Source: a virus
Taxonomy: Duplodnaviria; Heunggongvirae; Uroviricota; Caudoviricetes
Reading direction: 5' to 3' (one strand)
DNA length: 4,435 nucleotides
IMG/VR virus record: IMGVR_UViG_2548876863_000003
Span: 1-4,435 of that record
Position 1 is the first letter of the stretch. Every line of letters starts with the position of its first letter. The notes under the pieces were generated by a model. The model had not been told where the DNA came from, searched no databases, and saw nothing but the letters and a program-made list of their open reading frames with translations. Below are positions 1-4,435 of this stretch, in pieces. A program made the position numbers and the translations under genes.

Positions 1-20
1 CAAAAACCCGTTATCCGGTG
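1..20 (-). terminator. Possible weak intrinsic terminator downstream of the repressor gene (minus-strand RNA ...CACCGGAUAACGGGUUUUUG)
   Basis: On the minus strand a short GC stem (CCGG/CGGG around a GAUAA loop) is followed by a U5 run. The stem is only 3-4 bp and the element lies at the window edge. No ORF continues leftward on the minus strand: all three frames hit stops at 11-13, 40-42 and 72-74. Confidence 0.2.
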
Positions 21-103
21 AAACGCAGCACCGCTCCGCTTAAGTGAACGGCATTGGACGCTAAGGTCGGGTTATTGTTGTGTGTTTTAGAGTGGTGAGG
101 CTG

Positions 104-757
104 TTAACTAAATGTCTCTTCAGGCCACTGGCTGGCGATAACTTTCCCTACTACGGAACAGCTATCATTGCATGGAATCATTGGATATTGCGGGTTTAGT
201 GGTTGTAGGAACACCTGACCGCTATCCCTGATCAGTTTCTTGAAGGTAAACTCGTCACCACCAAGTCTGGCTATGCAGAAATCACCTGGCTCAACAGCCT
301 GCTCAGGGTCAACGAGAATTAACATCCCGTCAGGAAAGCTTGGCTTGGATCCTGTTGGCGCGGTCATGGAATTACCTTCAACTTCAAGCCAAAACGCACA
401 ATCACTGGCTTTTTTGGTTGTGCTGACCCATCTCTCCGCATCACCTTTGGTAAAGGTTCTAAGCTCAGGCGAGAACATACCGGCCTGAACATGAGAAAAA
501 ACAGGGTACTCATATTGTTTTTTAACGGGGGCAGATGAGTATTCGCCAACAGGTGAAAATGTACCGTCGTGGTTGAATGAGACGTTATCAATACCAAGGT
601 ATTTAAACACCACACCAATCTCGTCAAGAGATGGATGACGAGATCCGCGCAACCAGTGACCAATTCCACCCTGCGTCATACCAAGCTCTTCGGCTAACTT
701 CTCTTGAGTTATGCCGAGCTCTTTCATTCTGGATCTAGCCAGTTCATACCATTTCAT
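104..757 (-). CDS. cI: CI-type prophage repressor: N-terminal XRE-family helix-turn-helix domain plus C-terminal S24 (LexA/CI) self-cleaving peptidase domain
   Basis: The ORF track gives 104..805, but that ORF begins with TTG. I place the start at ATG 757 ([18 protein letters not shown]...) because AAGGG lies 7 nt upstream; ATG 763 and ATG 799 are alternatives. The C-terminal domain carries the S24 hallmarks: a QAG Ala-Gly self-cleavage site, a GNSM serine motif and a GKVIASQW lysine motif. From [12 protein letters not shown] to the end it is near-identical to the phage lambda CI C-terminal domain as recalled from memory (only about 3 substitutions). The N-terminal HTH domain is unrelated to lambda's. 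The stop is TAA at 104-106. Confidence 0.9.
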
Positions 758-874
758 TTTCATACCCTTATTATTACGCTCTGTACTAAAATCATCCATG
801 CACAAGATGTATTTTTTGTTTGCATTCTAAAAGTACATATCGTATTATTGCGTTATGGTTACTATGGAGGGCAT
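758..874. promoter_or_regulatory. Divergent immunity control region (OR-like operators with PR-like and PRM-like promoters) between the repressor and cro
   Basis: Position between divergently transcribed repressor and cro genes, AT-rich. Candidate rightward promoter: -35 TTGCAT (820-825), 17-bp spacer, -10 TATTAT (843-848), then GGAGG (866-870) and cro ATG at 875. Candidate leftward -10 is TAGAAT on the minus strand (829-824). Individual operator sites could not be resolved by eye; there are short inverted AGTACA/TGTACT elements at 782-787 and 832-837 and TATTATT(A/G)CG repeats at 768-779 and 843-852. Confidence 0.5.
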
Positions 875-1090
875 ATGAGCAACCTACGAAAATATCGAGA
901 GTCACTGAATATCTCTCAAACAACACTTGCTAAGGCAGTTGGATGCACACAGGGAGCTATCGGACATTGGGAATCTGGTCGTCGCTTCCCAGACCTTAAA
1001 ACATGCCGTGCTCTTGTTGCGTGCCTAAACAAGTTAGGCGCAAAAGTCAGTCTTGATGACGTGTTCCCGCCGGAACACAAAGCCGCTTAA
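875..1090 (+). CDS. cro: Cro-like small HTH repressor (71 aa, XRE family)
   Basis: ATG at 875 with GGAGG 4 nt upstream; 71 codons; stop TAA 1088-1090. The HTH is ISQTTLAKAVGCTQGAIGHW, and its recognition helix (TQGAIGHW) closely matches that of the divergent repressor (TQGGIGHW), as expected for a repressor/Cro pair sharing operators. The protein ends in KAA. It is the 3' part of tracked ORF 704..1090, whose 5' extension overlaps the repressor start and is not credible. Confidence 0.85.
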   Translation: MSNLRKYRESLNISQTTLAKAVGCTQGAIGHWESGRRFPDLKTCRALVACLNKLGAKVSLDDVFPPEHKAA

Positions 1091-1100
1091 TAAGCGGATC

Positions 1101-1146
1101 CGCTCTTTGTAACAACGGACATTCGTCCTACGTCGCTGAAAAGCGA
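1101..1146 (+). promoter_or_regulatory. nutR-like antitermination site: boxA-like element followed by two short hairpins (boxB candidates)
   Basis: CGCTCTTTGTAACAA (1101-1115) resembles the boxA consensus (CGCTCTTA in lambda, TGCTCTTTAACAA in rrn). Hairpin 1 is GGAC-ATTC-GTCC (1117-1128). Hairpin 2 is TCGCT-GAAA-AGCGA (1133-1146), a 5-bp stem with a GNRA-type loop reminiscent of lambda boxB (GCCCU-GAAAA-AGGGC). The position between cro and cII matches lambda nutR. Confidence 0.45.
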
Positions 1147-1221
1147 GTTCCAAGATATCTGACCAACTAAGGCCATATGCGTTTCCACGCATACCTTTCA
1201 ACTAACTATTCACTACTGGAA

Positions 1222-1254
1222 ATCTTAAGAAATGGAACAAACAAGTTACAGCAA
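1222..1254 (-). promoter_or_regulatory. PRE-like CII-activated leftward promoter embedded in the 5' end of cII
   Basis: The minus strand reads TTGC-TGTAAC-TTGT (1254-1241), a TTGC-N6-TTGY direct repeat like the lambda CII box (TTGC-N6-TTGC). It is followed by 13 nt and then TAAGAT-TTCC (1227-1222 onward), which mirrors the lambda PRE layout as recalled (TTGC-N6-TTGC, 13 nt, AAGTAT-TTCC). The location in codons 4-8 of cII is the same as in lambda. Confidence 0.45.
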
Positions 1255-1528
1255 ACTATCACAGCGCGACGTTGATCGCGCAGAAACAGATTTACTCATC
1301 AACCTGTCAACGCTTACCCAGCGCGGTCTGGCAAAGATGATTGGCTGTCATGAATCGAAGATAAGCAGAACGGACTGGAGATTTATTGCTTCGGTCCTGT
1401 GTGCTTTCGGAATGGCATCAGACATCAGTCCGATTAGCAGGGCTTTTAAGTATGCGCTTGATGGACTCACCAATAAAAAACGCCCGGCGGCAACCGAGCG
1501 TTCTGAACAAATCCAGATGGATTTTTAA
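1232..1528 (+). CDS. cII: CII-like transcriptional activator (98 aa)
   Basis: ATG 1232; stop TAA 1526-1528. The C-terminus LTNKKRPAATERSEQIQMDF is essentially identical to the lambda CII C-terminus (ILTNKKRPAATERSEQIQMEF, from memory). The N-terminal 78 residues are diverged but of the same length and pattern (KISRTDW here versus QISRWKRDW in lambda). Confidence 0.9.
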   Translation: MEQTSYSKLSQRDVDRAETDLLINLSTLTQRGLAKMIGCHESKISRTDWRFIASVLCAFGMASDISPISRAFKYALDGLTNKKRPAATERSEQIQMDF

Positions 1529-1539
1529 CTGCTTTCTAT
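1474..1539 (-). ncRNA. oop: oop-like antisense RNA (about 66 nt) overlapping the cII 3' end, ending at a GC-hairpin plus U6 intrinsic terminator
   Basis: Plus-strand 1472-1524 (CAATAAAAAACGCCCGGCGGCAACCGAGCGTTCTGAACAAATCCAGATGGA) matches, as I recall it, the lambda sequence that encodes the 3' two-thirds of oop RNA. On the minus strand this gives ...CGCUCGGUUGCCGCCGGGCGUUUUUUAUU, a GC-rich hairpin plus U6 with the 3' end near 1474-1480. The predicted 5' end at about 1539 follows from the promoter at 1547-1555. Confidence 0.55.
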
Positions 1540-1546
1540 GGAGTTA

Positions 1547-1555
1547 ATTATGGCA
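1547..1555 (-). promoter_or_regulatory. pO-like extended -10 promoter (TGcCATAAT) for the oop-like RNA, overlapping the HNH gene start codon
   Basis: The minus strand reads TGCCATAAT (1555-1547), i.e. a TGn extension plus CATAAT hexamer. In lambda (from memory) the pO -10 is also CATAAT and also overlaps the start codon of the downstream rightward gene (O, ...TCATTATGACA...). Here the same hexamer overlaps the ATTATG of the HNH gene. Confidence 0.5.
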
Positions 1556-2350
1556 AAAAAACCTACACCAGACCAGGTAAAAAAGATTCGTTCCGGCATT
1601 ACCAAGAAAATACGGTTTGAGGTTTTCAAGCGCGATGGCTTCAAATGCCAGTACTGTGGGAGTTCTGCGCCAGACGTCATCCTTCATGTCGACCATATCA
1701 ACCCAGTTAGCAAGGGTGGCGATAACGACATGATGAACCTTATTACTTCTTGCGATAGTTGTAATGGCGGGAAAAGCGACAAACTGCTCAGCGATAACTC
1801 AATAATGGAAAAGCAAAGGCAGCAACTCCAGGAACTTAATACCAAGCGAGAGCAACTGGAGATGATGATCAAGTGGCGAGATGGTCTTAAGAGCCTGAAA
1901 GACGATGTTGTTGATATTGTCGCTACCAAAATTGACGACTGCATTGCGCCATTTACTGTTAATGACAATGGGCGAAAATCTATCAAGAGATGGCTTCGAA
2001 TATATAAGCTTGAAGAAATCCTCGATGCGATTGAGATTGCTGCAGACAAAAAACTCACCCAAGAAATAACCCATGAGCTTACTGGTGAATTCTTTGAGTA
2101 CATCCCTCGCATAGCAGCGACAAAAAGAAAACCGCCAAAAGAACAAAGGATTCTATACATCAGAGGAATCCTTAAAAACCGCATATATATCAATCAAAAC
2201 CATGTAATGAGTTATCTCAAGGCATGGCTTTCATACGACTTAGATCTCGATGAACTTACTGAGTTTGCGAAAACAGTACCTAACTGGACAACGTTCAAGG
2301 AGTGGGTATCTGAACGCATTCGTGAAGCTCAGGAAGAACTCCCGTACTAA
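1550..2350 (+). CDS. HNH-family endonuclease (about 266 aa) with an N-terminal HNH domain, a coiled-coil-like segment and a roughly 150-aa C-terminal domain of unknown function
   Basis: ATG 1550 with GGAG (1540-1543) 6 nt upstream; the in-frame ATG at 1538 lacks an RBS. The HNH motif is complete: CQYCG...LHVDHINPVSKGGDNDMMNLITSCDSCNGGKSDK (two Cys pairs, H-x-D-H, conserved N). A Q/E/L-rich heptad-like stretch follows (QRQQLQELNTKREQLEMMIKW). Stop TAA 2348-2350. The gene sits between cII and the replication initiator, in a co-directional tightly packed operon. Confidence 0.8.
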   Translation: MAKKPTPDQVKKIRSGITKKIRFEVFKRDGFKCQYCGSSAPDVILHVDHINPVSKGGDNDMMNLITSCDSCNGGKSDKLLSDNSIMEKQRQQLQELNTKREQLEMMIKWRDGLKSLKDDVVDIVATKIDDCIAPFTVNDNGRKSIKRWLRIYKLEEILDAIEIAADKKLTQEITHELTGEFFEYIPRIAATKRKPPKEQRILYIRGILKNRIYINQNHVMSYLKAWLSYDLDLDELTEFAKTVPNWTTFKEWVSERIREAQEELPY

Positions 2351-2361
2351 AGGTGGACAAA

Positions 2362-3249
2362 ATGGCACGTTCAAGAAATATCAAACCAGGCTTTTTCACC
2401 AATGATGAATTAGCTGAGTGTTCTCCATATGCCCGTCTCCTTTTTGCCGGGTTATGGACTATTGCTGACAAAGAAGGGCGGTTGGATGATCGCCCAAAGA
2501 AAATTAAAGCAATGGTACTGCCTTTCGATGATGTGGACTGCAATGATCTGCTTCAGCAACTTCACAGTCACAAATTCATCAACCGATATCAGGTAAATGG
2601 CGGCTCATATATCCAAATCAATAACTGGAAAAAGCACCAGAACCCTCACTGCAAAGAAGCTGCCAGTGAGATACCAGAACCAGTAGAGAACAATAACAGC
2701 ACCATGCAAGTACAGTGCAATGACGATAAAGGGGAAGAGAAGGAGGATGCAGAATCACTTCAAGTCATTGAAAACAATGAAGCACCAGAAAAGCACCATG
2801 CAAGTACAGTGCAAGAACAAGTTGAGAACAGTTTAAATCCTGCTGATTCCCTTAACCTGATTCCTGATTCCCTTAACCTGATTCCTGATTCCCTTTCTAA
2901 CACCCAAGCCGCTGACGCGACTTGTGAAGGGGGTGGGGCTGATGTCCATAAAATTTCAAGTCGCTATGCATTCGAAGGAAATATCGTTCGGTTAAACCAC
3001 AAGGATTACGAAGCATGGAAGCGCCTGTATCCGAACATTGACCTGAATTACGAGCTGGAAAGGCTGGATATCGAATTTAGCCATGAGAAGCCAAAGAACT
3101 GGTTTATCACTGCCAGCCAGAAACTCAGCTACCAGAACAAGCAGGCGTTATCCAGACCGGTACGCAAGGTTGCTAATGGACTTAAGGCTGAAAACTTTGC
3201 CACCAAGGATTACGGACAAACTGAAATGCCTTCATGGGCGCAGGAGTGA
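2362..3249 (+). CDS. Putative replication initiator (functional analogue of lambda O): conserved N-terminal domain, acidic low-complexity linker encoded by repeat DNA, C-terminal domain
   Basis: ATG 2362 with AGGTGG (2351-2356) 5 nt upstream; the tracked ORF starts at GTG 2353. Stop TGA 3247-3249. It lies immediately upstream of, and is translationally coupled to, the DnaC-like loader. The central region (about aa 95-200) is E/N/Q/D-rich low complexity and coincides with the DNA repeats at 2698-2901. The family assignment is not resolved from sequence alone; the protein is not lambda-O-like in sequence. Confidence 0.65.
   Translation: MARSRNIKPGFFTNDELAECSPYARLLFAGLWTIADKEGRLDDRPKKIKAMVLPFDDVDCNDLLQQLHSHKFINRYQVNGGSYIQINNWKKHQNPHCKEAASEIPEPVENNNSTMQVQCNDDKGEEKEDAESLQVIENNEAPEKHHASTVQEQVENSLNPADSLNLIPDSLNLIPDSLSNTQAADATCEGGGADVHKISSRYAFEGNIVRLNHKDYEAWKRLYPNIDLNYELERLDIEFSHEKPKNWFITASQKLSYQNKQALSRPVRKVANGLKAENFATKDYGQTEMPSWAQE
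2698..2720. repeat. Copy 1 of a 23-bp exact direct repeat AGCACCATGCAAGTACAGTGCAA
   Basis: Identical 23-mer at 2698-2720 and 2792-2814, offset by 94 bp (not a multiple of 3), so the two copies are translated in different frames (STMQVQC versus KHHASTVQ). The conservation is therefore at the DNA level. Confidence 0.8.
2792..2814. repeat. Copy 2 of the 23-bp exact direct repeat AGCACCATGCAAGTACAGTGCAA
   Basis: See copy 1; exact match read directly from the sequence. Confidence 0.8.
2843..2901. repeat. Tandem 21-bp repeats (CTGATTCCCTTAACCTGATTC x2 plus a partial third copy), an iteron-like array
   Basis: Units at 2843-2863 and 2864-2884 are identical; the third (2885-2901) diverges after CTGATTCCCTT. 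The core CTGATTC occurs five times (2843, 2857, 2864, 2878, 2885) with alternating 14 and 7 bp spacing. The array encodes DSLNLIP-DSLNLIP-DSLSN in the initiator linker. Confidence 0.8.
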
Positions 3250-3251
3250 AC

Positions 3252-4097
3252 ATGACGCTGGATGAAAAGATCTCCCAACTGGAGAAAAAACTTGCAGAAT
3301 TGAGTTCTCCGCCAATTGCTATCGAGCATACAGCTGTAGAAATTGGCTCTGGCATCTGTGAAAAACATGGTGAGTTTGAGCAGCGTAACCGTTACTCGAC
3401 TGGGCCAATTAAGTTTGCCTCAAGACCTAGCGAATGCCCGGAATGCATGAGAGATGAGCTTATTCGGCTACAGGCAGAGAAGATTAAAATCGACGAGGAA
3501 TCACGTAAGCGCAATGTCGAGTTTCTGTTGAATAATCTTGATATTCCTGAACGATTCAAGGGTTGCACACTGCAGAACTACGAGCCAGTCAACGACGATG
3601 CAAAGAGAGTGCTCAGGGTGTGTCAGGCATACGCCAGCAAATGGCCTGAGAGGTTACAGAAAGGCGGTGGGCTGGTTATGTGTGGAAAGCCTGGTACTGG
3701 AAAGAATCATCTTGCACTGGCTATCGCCCGGCACGCAATTACGGAACATCAAAGCTCAGCTATTTTCACAACGGCGCTGAAAATTGCCAGAGAATATAAA
3801 TCAACATGGTCGAAAAACTCCACCCGCACAGAGGATGAAGTGATCCGACAGTTCACTAAACCTGACCTGCTAATTATCGATGAGGTTGGTGTGCAGTTTG
3901 GAAGCGAGGCGGAAAAGATGATCATGTTCGAAATCATCAACACCCGCTACGAGCGCATGAAGCCAACAATCCTGATTAGCAACCAGAGCAAAGATGAACT
4001 GTCTGCATTCATTGGTGAGCGTGTTATTGACAGGATGAATGATGGCGGCGGATGCACCCTTGCGTTTACATGGGATAGTTACAGGAGCAGATCGTGA
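3252..4097 (+). CDS. DnaC/IstB-family AAA+ ATPase, putative replicative helicase loader
   Basis: ATG 3252 with AGGAG (3242-3246) 5 nt upstream; the tracked ATG 3234 lies inside the upstream gene. Walker A is GKPGTGKNHLALAI and Walker B is LLIIDEVG; the C-terminal region (ERVIDRM...SYR) is DnaC-like. The N-terminal region has a C-x2-H...C-x2-C cluster (CEKH...CPEC). Stop TGA 4095-4097. Confidence 0.9.
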   Translation: MTLDEKISQLEKKLAELSSPPIAIEHTAVEIGSGICEKHGEFEQRNRYSTGPIKFASRPSECPECMRDELIRLQAEKIKIDEESRKRNVEFLLNNLDIPERFKGCTLQNYEPVNDDAKRVLRVCQAYASKWPERLQKGGGLVMCGKPGTGKNHLALAIARHAITEHQSSAIFTTALKIAREYKSTWSKNSTRTEDEVIRQFTKPDLLIIDEVGVQFGSEAEKMIMFEIINTRYERMKPTILISNQSKDELSAFIGERVIDRMNDGGGCTLAFTWDSYRSRS

Positions 4098-4384
4098 CTG
4101 GAAAAGAAATCATCCTGGAATATCTGAAAACTCATGAACAATTCTCCCCACATGAATTAGCACTGATTACCGGAATACCAAATAACAGAATCGCTCAAGC
4201 AGCAAGGCATATGGTGAAACAAGGGCATTTGAGTGTTGTTGAGCGTAAGTGGAAGACGGTTATTTATGCAAAACGCAAAGTGAAGAAGGAGCCAATTAAA
4301 AGAAATCCAGATGGTACGGGGTGGGGATGTGCAAATCCAATGACGGCGTTTATTAATAGGGCGCTTATGGAGGTAAGGCAATGA
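4094..4384 (+). CDS. ren: Ren-like protein (96 aa)
   Basis: GTG 4094 overlaps the DnaC-like stop (GTGA), with AGGAG (4083-4087) 6 nt upstream. The N-terminus MTGKEIILEYLKTHEQF resembles lambda Ren (MTGKEAIIHYLGTHNSF, from memory); length (96 aa) and position directly after the helicase-loader gene match lambda ren. Stop TGA 4382-4384. Confidence 0.6.
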   Translation: MTGKEIILEYLKTHEQFSPHELALITGIPNNRIAQAARHMVKQGHLSVVERKWKTVIYAKRKVKKEPIKRNPDGTGWGCANPMTAFINRALMEVRQ

Positions 4385-4435
4385 ATAAAAAACAATTAGC
4401 CATTCTCGAAAAGGCATGGGATGCACAAATATCAT
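4381..4435 (+). CDS. 5' end of a downstream gene of unknown function (MNKKQLAILEKAWDAQIS...), truncated by the window edge
   Basis: ATG 4381 overlaps the ren stop (ATGA) and has GGAGG (4369-4373) 7 nt upstream. The frame is open to the window end. Only 18 codons are visible, and they do not resemble lambda NinB as I recall it. Confidence 0.5.
   Translation, partial: MNKKQLAILEKAWDAQIS

Follow-up and report, generated by a model that had tools for sequence, protein, structure and literature searches.

The 4,435-bp stretch of DNA analysed here, positions 1 to 4,435 of the IMG/VR virus record IMGVR_UViG_2548876863_000003 (Caudoviricetes) and referred to as the window, carries a gene for an initiator-like protein, and in the middle of this gene lies a tandem array of the heptamer CTGATTC. 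In our view, comparison with homologous genes establishes the array as part of a functional cis-acting DNA element. The repeats seem to form the 3' half of an element of about 250 bp (approximately 2686-2924) in the linker-coding region of the gene, and this element is most likely the replication origin of the phage, a reading which we hold with fair confidence. The gene and the components of the element are as follows:

2362-3249, plus strand: initiator-like gene of 888 nt, encoding 295 amino acids (open reading frame (ORF) list; phrog_17247)
2362-2661, plus strand: region coding for the predicted N-terminal winged-helix domain, amino acids 1-100
2686-2729, plus strand: distal partial cluster, 11-bp-phased, with GAGAAC at 2686, CAGCAC at 2697 and AAGTAC at 2708
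2780-2834, plus strand: proximal array of five 11-bp-phased units, AAGCAC at 2780, AAGCAC at 2791, AAGTAC at 2802, AAGAAC at 2813 and GAGAAC at 2824
2843-2895, plus strand: heptamer array CTGATTC CCTTAAC CTGATTC CTGATTC CCTTAAC CTGATTC CTGATTC CCTT, in a 7-bp register
2905-2924, plus strand: imperfect palindrome CAAGCCGC-TGAC-GCGACTTG, just 3' of the heptamer array
2965-3249, plus strand: region coding for the C-terminal domain, amino acids about 202-295, clade-variable

The heptamer array in the window

Tandem Repeats Finder delimits the array at 2843-2895 with a period of 21, 2.5 copies, 100% matches and a score of 106, the two 21-nt copies at 2843-2863 and 2864-2884 being perfect. CTGATTC occurs five times on the plus strand, at 2843, 2857, 2864, 2878 and 2885, and nowhere else in the window on either strand. 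In dinucleotide-preserving shuffles the heptamer is matched 0.9 times on average, and five matches were reached in none of 200 shuffles. An earlier note on this DNA had described a tandem 21-bp repeat of 2.5 copies with five CTGATTC cores at a spacing of 14/7/14/7, and both descriptions are borne out. Of the span 2843-2901 given there the start holds, but not the end, as the perfect repeat stops at 2895 and the last core at 2891.

The array corresponds to nucleotides 482-534 of the 888-nt ORF (54-60% of its length) and codes for ADSLNLIPDSLNLIPDSL, the five cores being read alternately as xCT-GAT-TCC (x-D-S) and CTG-ATT-C (L-I-P). A full-length AlphaFold2 model of the protein, which is of low confidence (predicted local distance difference test score, pLDDT, of 47) and was used for domain boundaries only, has no secondary structure at residues 90-201, a stretch that covers all of the repeats. 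The statement in the earlier note that the array lies mid-way in the initiator ORF and encodes a linker is therefore confirmed.

Conservation of the repeat as DNA

When the gene is compared by blastn with phage genomes, only about 60 bases, those of the repeat, are matched, at 98-100% identity, in genes of Vibrio, Acinetobacter, and Pseudomonas phages. These matches sit in the middle of genes for 267-296 amino acids at the initiator position, and the Pseudomonas and Acinetobacter versions lie downstream of cro-like genes. The Vibrio, Acinetobacter, and Pseudomonas genes have the N-terminal domain beginning with MARARNIKP… in common, with different C-termini. At least 120 IMG/VR contigs contain the 22-mer CTGATTCCCTTAACCTGATTCC without a mismatch; among the matches listed, it is always read in one frame (124/124), is located mid-way in ORFs of 260-365 amino acids on contigs of 35-64% guanine plus cytosine (GC), and is accompanied by two to nine cores per viral contig. 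Since these contigs were selected by the DNA itself, a second, unbiased sample was drawn, consisting of 80 loci on one-genome-per-species contigs that were retrieved solely with two peptide patterns from the N-terminal domain; 60 genes were left after dereplication at 85% nucleotide identity. About 68 of the 80 loci carry two to five clustered CTGATTC cores in mid-ORF, and clustered cores are found mid-gene in 53 of the 60 dereplicated genes. Carriers include Bacillota (Shimazuella, Laceyella, Desulfotomaculum, Lachnospiraceae, and Dethiobacter), Acidobacteriota, Actinomycetota, Planctomycetota, Omnitrophota, and β- and γ-proteobacteria, from isolates as well as from metagenome-assembled genomes (MAGs), and the homologous loci with the repeat span 37-72% GC.

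The distribution of the core is strongly oriented and local. CTGATTC occurs 178 times forward and 7 times in reverse within 53 kb of homologous ORFs, and 17 times forward and 31 times in reverse within 304 kb of flanking DNA, which is the chance level; within each locus examined the arrays are confined to the initiator gene. The median position of the cores is at 0.51 of the ORF length, and their spacings are 7 (48 cases), 14 (45), 21 (19), 15 (6), and 8 (3). Conservation of repeat number and spacing in homologous prophages had been proposed as a check, and the spacing is kept, 7/14/21 predominating family-wide. Clustered cores are kept as well, whereas their number varies in steps of 21 bp. 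Near-identical Salmonella prophage proteins differ by steps of 7 amino acids (288, 295, 302, 309, 316, and 323 residues), as expected for a tolerant tandem array.

Slippage readily makes short tandem repeats, but the shuffles described above, the number of viral contigs with the exact 22-mer and the dereplicated homologues with a core in mid-gene rule out a chance or neutral tandem duplication without function, to which we assign practically no probability.

Codon usage is equally telling. In 51 LIPDS motifs of the dereplicated set, leucine is encoded by CTG in 96%, isoleucine by ATT in 100%, proline by CCT in 98%, aspartate by GAT in 100%, and serine by TCC in 94% of cases, whereas the N-terminal domains encoded by these genes use the same codons for the respective residues in only 28, 32, 26, 54, and 9% of cases. 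When the window is compared with Bacillota, Acidobacteriota, and Planctomycetota homologues, identity of the N-terminal coding DNA amounts to 57-69% and codon identity at identical residues is only 0.29-0.47, so that synonymous sites are near saturation; nevertheless, exact strings of 16-50 nt are common to the linkers in this cross-phylum comparison, the arrays of Shimazuella and Desulfotomaculum having 35-43 identical nt in common with the window. These data argue strongly for selection on the repeat at the level of the nucleotides and not of the peptide. The opposite explanation would be that only the peptide matters, a low-complexity or short-linear-motif linker (…DSLNLIPDS…) binding a host or phage protein or spacing the domains, with DNA identity reflecting recent slippage. 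It would fit with the single frame of the 22-mers listed, with the disorder of the region in the model and with copy number changing by whole units of 7 amino acids. However, it does not account for the near-invariance of the codons in different phyla and over a GC range of 37-72% among the loci, given that elsewhere in these genes every codon is used for the amino acids concerned.

Reading frame and stop-codon avoidance

In homologous arrays 158 of 177 cores stand in a 7-bp register with the first core of their own array. Sorted by reading frame, CTGATTC fills 101 of 110 frame-1 units and 57 of 88 frame-0 units but none of the 77 frame-2 units, where the core would read nnC-TGA-TTC and thus contain a stop codon. 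In this frame it is replaced by CCTTAAC (32 units), CGGATTC (9 units; a single T-to-G change that removes the stop), or CTTTAAC (8 units). Every third 7-bp unit is therefore altered because the core would give a TGA stop there, and the skipping of this unit makes the spacing alternate between 14 and 7 and sets the period at 21 bp, or two helical turns. Homologues with GGAACAG or GGATCAG, cores that are stop-free in every frame, have unbroken runs of 7-mers. Judged from its sequence, the array is a 7-bp tandem repeat with every third unit skipped under the overlapping reading frame, and we take these patterns as direct evidence that the DNA motif is primary and that the peptide accommodates it. 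A heptamer conserved in two frames and missing exactly from the one which would generate a stop is not what would be expected if the peptide alone were selected.

A second array, a distal cluster and a palindrome

Immediately 5' of the CTGATTC array lies the proximal array, absent from the earlier note, whose five units are read in frames 1, 0, 2, 1, and 0. A three-unit RAGNAC pattern has 3 matches in this array and 0 in 200 shuffles. Among the 60 dereplicated genes the spacings of RAGNAC are 11 (55 cases), 22 (29), 33 (23), and 44 (9), with almost nothing else, and 11-bp units correspond to one unit per helical turn. The consensus of the unbiased set, anchored on the first CTGATTC, reads AGCACCaGa.AAGCAC.GTgC.AG.AC.GtgCAAGcACCaGA..AGcACaG. 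As in the heptamer array, codons of the 11-mers depart from background, with CAA for glutamine in 100% versus 32%, AAG for lysine in 91% versus 50%, CAC for histidine in 81% versus 47%, and AGY for serine in 100% versus 35%. Conservation of the 11-mer in three frames again speaks against selection on the peptide alone. Both arrays are conserved as nucleotides regardless of frame, and always together with the same N-terminal winged-helix domain. The 21-bp array had been proposed as a candidate origin element; its position in the lambdoid gene order agrees with this, but it constitutes only half of a two-array element.

The distal partial cluster is linked to the proximal array by an exact 23-nt duplicate, AGCACCATGCAAGTACAGTGCAA, at 2698-2720 and 2792-2814, 94 bp apart, the two copies being translated in different frames (STMQVQC and HHASTVQ). 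On the minus strand each copy could form a weak hairpin with a run of T after it. The codons of the invariant K-H-Q-N at 2632-2642 read AAGCACCAGAA, which is identical to the first proximal 11-bp unit (2780-2790); this may be fortuitous or may point to the sequence from which the array evolved.

The palindrome is kept in the Enterobacterales clade only, where its outer CAAG/CTTG is invariant, and is the most stable duplex stretch of the region. Among 48 distinct variants collected, 87% of cells pair; as no pair is changed on both sides among 20 distinct sequences, its interpretation as a structure was dropped. Its position recalls that of the palindrome right of ori-lambda.

Distant homologues and exchangeable domains

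Homologues without CTGATTC carry other tandem repeats at the same place, the last four of those listed being more distant phage homologues:

betaproteobacterial MAG: (ATGGGTT ATGGGTT GCCTCTA) x 2.5
Actinomycetota: GGGTCTTGTCTT x 3
Calditrichota MAG: GATACA runs
another MAG: AAGATCn repeats
mycobacteriophage Redi: TCGCGAGACCC x 4 at 11-bp spacing, then GGAACAGG x 4
Propionibacterium phage PFR1: TCGCGAG x 3 at 11-bp spacing, then GGAACAGA x 4
Streptomyces phage Austintatious: GGAACAG x 6
Klebsiella phage ST512-KPC3phi13.3: AGTAC x 4 at 11-bp spacing, then GGATCAG x 3

In distant actinophage and Klebsiella-phage homologues an 11-bp array is thus followed by a 7-8-bp array, although the sequences are different. 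That the same DNA layout is kept over other peptides adds to the evidence given above, and we regard a function of the linker peptide alone as highly improbable. The distant 7-mers GGATCAG and GGAACAG resemble the reverse complement of the core in the window (GAATCAG) and could be an inverted related motif or a product of chance.

The cores of the window type and their variants CGGATTC and CTGAATC contain GANTC, a methylation site of the CcrM/HinfI type, and the Klebsiella-phage core GGATCAG contains GATC. Vibrio phage 24E30.2 has two methyltransferase genes just downstream of its replication genes (4329-5580). Control of the arrays by methylation is conceivable.

Changes in the repeat may go along with changes in the initiator. 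Distant clades have an N-terminal arm RIR(S/T)IKPEFW instead of R(S/A)RNIKPGFF, their KHQNPH motif differs as well, and clades with RTIK, RSIK, or RLIS in place of RNIK carry other 7-8-mers. Among 147 representatives the motif stands at 114:19 in RNIK proteins and at 1:4 in non-N6 proteins, which are small numbers without phylogenetic correction. Taken together, this is suggestive of co-variation between repeat sequence and initiator N-terminus. The repeat had been considered cognate to this particular initiator. Its linkage to the N-terminal domain would agree with such an assignment; it is not phage-specific, however, since the same sequence is common to initiator genes across phyla.

In contrast to the N-terminal domain, the other parts of the system are exchangeable. 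In Vibrio, Pseudomonas, and Acinetobacter phages the same N-terminal domain is followed, after one and the same repeat, by C-terminal domains of at least three unrelated kinds. The partner gene downstream varies too: a DnaC-like gene is found in the window, in Mx8 and in 18 of 80 loci, a lambda-P-like one in a Klebsiella phage and a DnaB-like one in JBD44. As C-termini and partner genes vary, the conserved unit consists of the N-terminal domain and the arrays. One could argue from the same observations that the DNA is kept as a region of homology at a module junction, promoting recombinational shuffling of initiator domains. Evolvability would be a weak force for maintaining 20-50 identical nucleotides across phyla at saturated synonymous sites, though, and strict direct orientation, 7- and 11-bp phasing and the exchange of sequence with kept architecture would be left unexplained. 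Shuffling is more simply seen as a consequence of a conserved origin, and a module-junction role appears very unlikely to us.

A gene for an HNH-endonuclease-domain protein adjoins the initiator gene in the window, and HNH domains are fused or adjacent in 10 of 80 loci; some homologues contain the HNH domain as a fusion, placed after the winged-helix domain and before the repeats. Both the HNH ORF (1550-2350) and the N-terminus of the initiator are matched by phrog_5718, and JBD44 possesses an HNH gene directly upstream of its initiator gene. With 10 of 80 loci, HNH was rejected as a universal partner and is regarded as accessory; it may have a role in nicking or homing at the arrays. The arrays might accordingly be a protein-binding site other than an origin, i.e., an operator for autoregulation by the initiator, a homing or nicking target or anchor of the HNH protein, or a site for another phage factor, and the failure to find an AT-rich unwinding element would agree with this. 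On the other hand, the 70 of 80 loci without detectable HNH keep the arrays, HNH-carrying alleles keep them too, unlike typical homing targets, and in no locus do the arrays occur outside the initiator gene. In addition, direct repeats in helical phase within an initiator gene, 5' of a loader or helicase gene, represent the classical origin arrangement (PMC7466680). A non-origin site is therefore less likely than an origin, and we would call it unlikely.

In Mx8 gp19 (1471-2652; 394 amino acids) the winged-helix domain is followed by an additional segment of about 90 residues (VYFVRAESGGPVKIGTA…GEWF) that on visual inspection resembles a domain of the GIY-YIG/T5orf172 type. The gp19 gene also has GGAGAT x 3 repeats.

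The initiator protein and its family

phrog_17247 matches the 295-residue protein over its full length (E=5e-191), and the N-terminal ~100-180 residues match five PHROGs annotated as "replication initiation protein", related PHROGs matching the initiator at 1e-49 to 2e-10. The full protein has no match to a Pfam family at E<=0.01 or to any NCBIfam family, none of 20 N-terminal domains of the family matches Pfam Phage_rep_O at E<=10, and the initiator has no sequence match to family models for DnaD/phage replisome organizer or DnaT (primosomal protein I). Among solved structures no relatives were found by sequence. The label "primosomal protein I" that some family members bear is supported by no model.

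The first 100 residues are confidently predicted to adopt a winged-helix fold, and the structural neighbours of this domain include replication-initiator domains. Homologues begin with MAR(S/A)RNIKP, and the protein of the window shows the complete family signature MAR(S/A)RNIKPxFF … LFxGLWxxAD … KHQNPH; R3, R5, K8, N14, R25, F28, G30, W32, D36, G39, Y76, H92, Q93, P95, H96, and E99 are invariant. The conserved N-terminal arm and the KHQNPH segment would be better candidates for DNA contacts than the helix at the usual "recognition" position, a suggestion we derive from conservation. At residues 202-264 the low-confidence AlphaFold2 model has a β-hairpin and helices. The C-terminal domain, which presumably contacts the helicase loader, has no family match besides phrog_17247.

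The family is large. A profile of the N-terminal domain retrieves 31,910 representatives of 50%-identity clusters at E<=1e-3 and 7,224 at 1e-30, and in these matches the domain is nearly always N-terminal, in proteins of 230-370 amino acids. Source names of 7018 homologous clusters are nearly all "hypothetical protein". The N-terminal domain is shared by phrog_17247, 16167, 12556, 1408, 2149, 5810, and 270, and family examples are Mx8 gp19, JBD44 gp2, mycobacteriophage Redi gp61, and Propionibacterium phage PFR1 orf48.

Genomic context

The window represents the immunity and early-right region of a lambdoid prophage, with the following genes besides that of the initiator:

104-805, minus strand: cI-like repressor with helix-turn-helix (HTH) and S24 peptidase domains
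875-1090: cro-like HTH protein
1232-1528: cII
1550-2350, plus strand: HNH-endonuclease-domain protein, directly 5' of the initiator gene (Pfam HNH, 1e-13)
3252-4097, plus strand: DnaC-like AAA+ helicase-loader gene, DnaC/IstB-like (Pfam IstB_IS21, 1.7e-18; phrog_50 "DnaC-like helicase loader", 7e-86)
4094-4384: Ren/MarR-like ORF

The initiator ATG at 2362 is preceded by the Shine-Dalgarno sequence AGGTGG, and the start of the loader gene (3252) overlaps the initiator stop codon; the loader product also matches NCBIfam DnaC at 2.6e-45, under the curated cutoff. The order cI-like, cro-like, cII, HNH, 295-residue ORF, and DnaC-like loader is that of a lambdoid early-right region and agrees with the earlier identification of the ORF as the initiator gene. 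The ORF is 100% identical to a stretch of the Stx1a-converting phage Stx1_121427 and 98% identical to "replication initiation protein" genes of the Escherichia phages Dewey and Louie.

In the E. coli strains 0H24/0H25/0H26 the same replication region is found in the chromosome and in separate "plasmid" records, NZ_CP081778.1, NZ_CP081786.1 (39,448 bp), NZ_CP081694.1 (29,741 bp), and NZ_CP081787.1 (6,197 bp), which probably represent excised or replicating phage DNA or assembly fragments. In NZ_CP081787.1 the annotated initiator ORF has 388 amino acids, with an N-terminal extension of 93 residues relative to the window. This record was rejected as a natural mini-replicon because it is a linear 6.2-kb fragment reaching from HNH to Q/tRNAs, and a copy on a 51-kb Enterobacter plasmid is uninformative in this respect, its initiator gene being split.

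Evidence for and against an origin function

The assignment of the element as an origin is based on its location within the initiator gene of a lambdoid replication module, the helical phasing of its direct repeats, its strict association with a winged-helix domain and the precedent of ori-lambda. Features that are general for iteron-type origins are present, i.e., tandem direct repeats in helical phase and, according to the structural model, an initiator with a winged-helix fold. In the proposed mechanism the initiator would be made from the early rightward transcript, and its winged-helix domains would bind the arrays in cis and oligomerise along them. The C-terminal domain would then recruit the product of the following gene, the DnaC-like loader, along with DnaB of the host, and the DNA would be opened at or beside the arrays, as in the O-some/P/DnaB pathway of lambda.

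Several observations weigh against this assignment. There is no AT-rich unwinding tract near the arrays, where GC is 0.39-0.52, the ten 40-bp segments of lowest duplex stability in the window all lie outside 2600-3000, and neither DnaA boxes nor an IHF (integration host factor) consensus were found near the arrays. The helix at the usual "recognition" position of the winged-helix domain (residues 60-69) is neither basic nor conserved, and no origin activity or binding is described experimentally for any family member in the open-access literature. As to the comparative evidence, homologues are phylogenetically related, so that counts overstate the number of independent observations, and slippage or gene conversion can make the units of a given array uniform. 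GATC clusters and sigma-70 promoters were likewise not found near the arrays, and no RNA element of Rfam matches the window at E<=1.

A more speculative view, which we consider doubtful, is that the two arrays together form a self-contained device that opens the origin without AT-rich DNA. The initiator would bind the duplex at the 11-bp-phased sites, which share one helical face, and would capture one strand of the 7-nt array, one protomer per 7 nt, in the manner of DnaA boxes and DnaA-trios. As the protein would read both arrays directly, no host-specific origin factors would be needed and the module could be workable in almost any bacterium. The retention of a string of 20-50 nt in Enterobacteria as well as in Bacillota, Acidobacteriota, and Planctomycetota, despite its passage through two or three reading frames of the initiator gene, would then be explained.

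Comparison with known systems

It has long been known that an origin can be situated inside an initiator gene. Iterons normally diverge quickly and define incompatibility types, and against this background the conservation of an iteron-like sequence across phyla is unusual. Novelty appears to lie in the family, in its anatomy of two arrays, in the rule of stop-codon avoidance and in the identity of the repeat across phyla. In open-access text the repeat, its reverse complement, the encoded peptide and the N-terminal motifs were found in no paper, although an older description in a subscription journal is possible; for the PHROG families concerned, the open-access literature describes no origin, iterons or binding. 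Papers on the Stx "Eru" replication types do not mention iterons, HNH, or DnaC for this module. A paper on mycobacteriophage RepA (PMC7157519) was considered as a precedent and rejected, no repeats being found for the RepA studied there.

If confirmed, the results would define origin and initiator for a very large module, comprising about 32,000 clusters at 50% identity that lack a Pfam or NCBIfam model and found in temperate phages whose hosts belong to many phyla, Stx1-converting phages of E. coli among them. They would also provide a clear case of a cis-acting DNA code laid over a coding sequence, an overlay that the stop-codon-avoidance rule makes legible from sequence alone. Origins would become predictable in thousands of prophages, and the module might serve as the scaffold of a broad-host-range replicon.

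The PHROG initiator families have the same N-terminal domain, the same gene position and the same intragenic layout of 11-bp and 7-8-bp repeats; in their distant members the repeat sequences differ, and the families are known by annotation only. With the iteron origins of theta plasmids (RepA/RepE/pi; staphylococcal RepA_N, PDB 4pta) the initiator has no sequence family in common (no Pfam match). In comparison with these origins, the units described here are far shorter than iterons of 17-22 bp, the arrays lie within coding sequence, and DnaA boxes and AT-rich 13-mers are absent.

At the double-strand origin of pMV158, RepB has two kinds of binding sites, three 11-bp direct repeats in tandem and two 7-bp direct repeats (PMC1851628); direct repeats of these two lengths are combined in the window as well. 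The analogy is architectural only, as RepB is an HUH rolling-circle nickase acting at two loci 84 bp apart around a nick hairpin, whereas neither an HUH domain nor a nick hairpin is evident in the window.

A system that resembles the element in its arrangement is ori-lambda, which sits in the middle of gene O (PMC7466680). The earlier note had proposed such a lambda-ori-like arrangement, and the position between N- and C-terminal domains agrees with it, whereas homology to O, iterons of about 19 bp and an AT-rich tract were not found; its remark that the repeat differs from the lambda iterons is correct, a 7-bp tandem core taking the place of a 19-bp iteron. Thus, the initiator is without homology to O (no match to Pfam Phage_rep_O), the loader is DnaC-like and not P, and 7-bp cores and 11-bp-phased hexamers without internal dyad symmetry are found instead of four to six iterons of about 19 bp. 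No AT-rich tract adjoins the arrays, and the repeat is conserved across phyla and not type-specific. The likeness to lambda lies in the organization. In both cases the origin, or putative origin, is placed in the middle of the initiator gene between regions for an N-terminal origin-binding and a C-terminal loader-binding domain (presumed functions in the window), and the loader gene directly follows the initiator gene in an early rightward operon after cro/cII. In both, too, extra repeats lengthen the protein, by 7 amino acids per 21-bp unit here and by 13 amino acids for two extra iterons in O of Stx phages (PMC7466680). The element is therefore most likely an intragenic replication origin, its function inferred from comparison, which would be lambda-like in arrangement but non-homologous to that of lambda.

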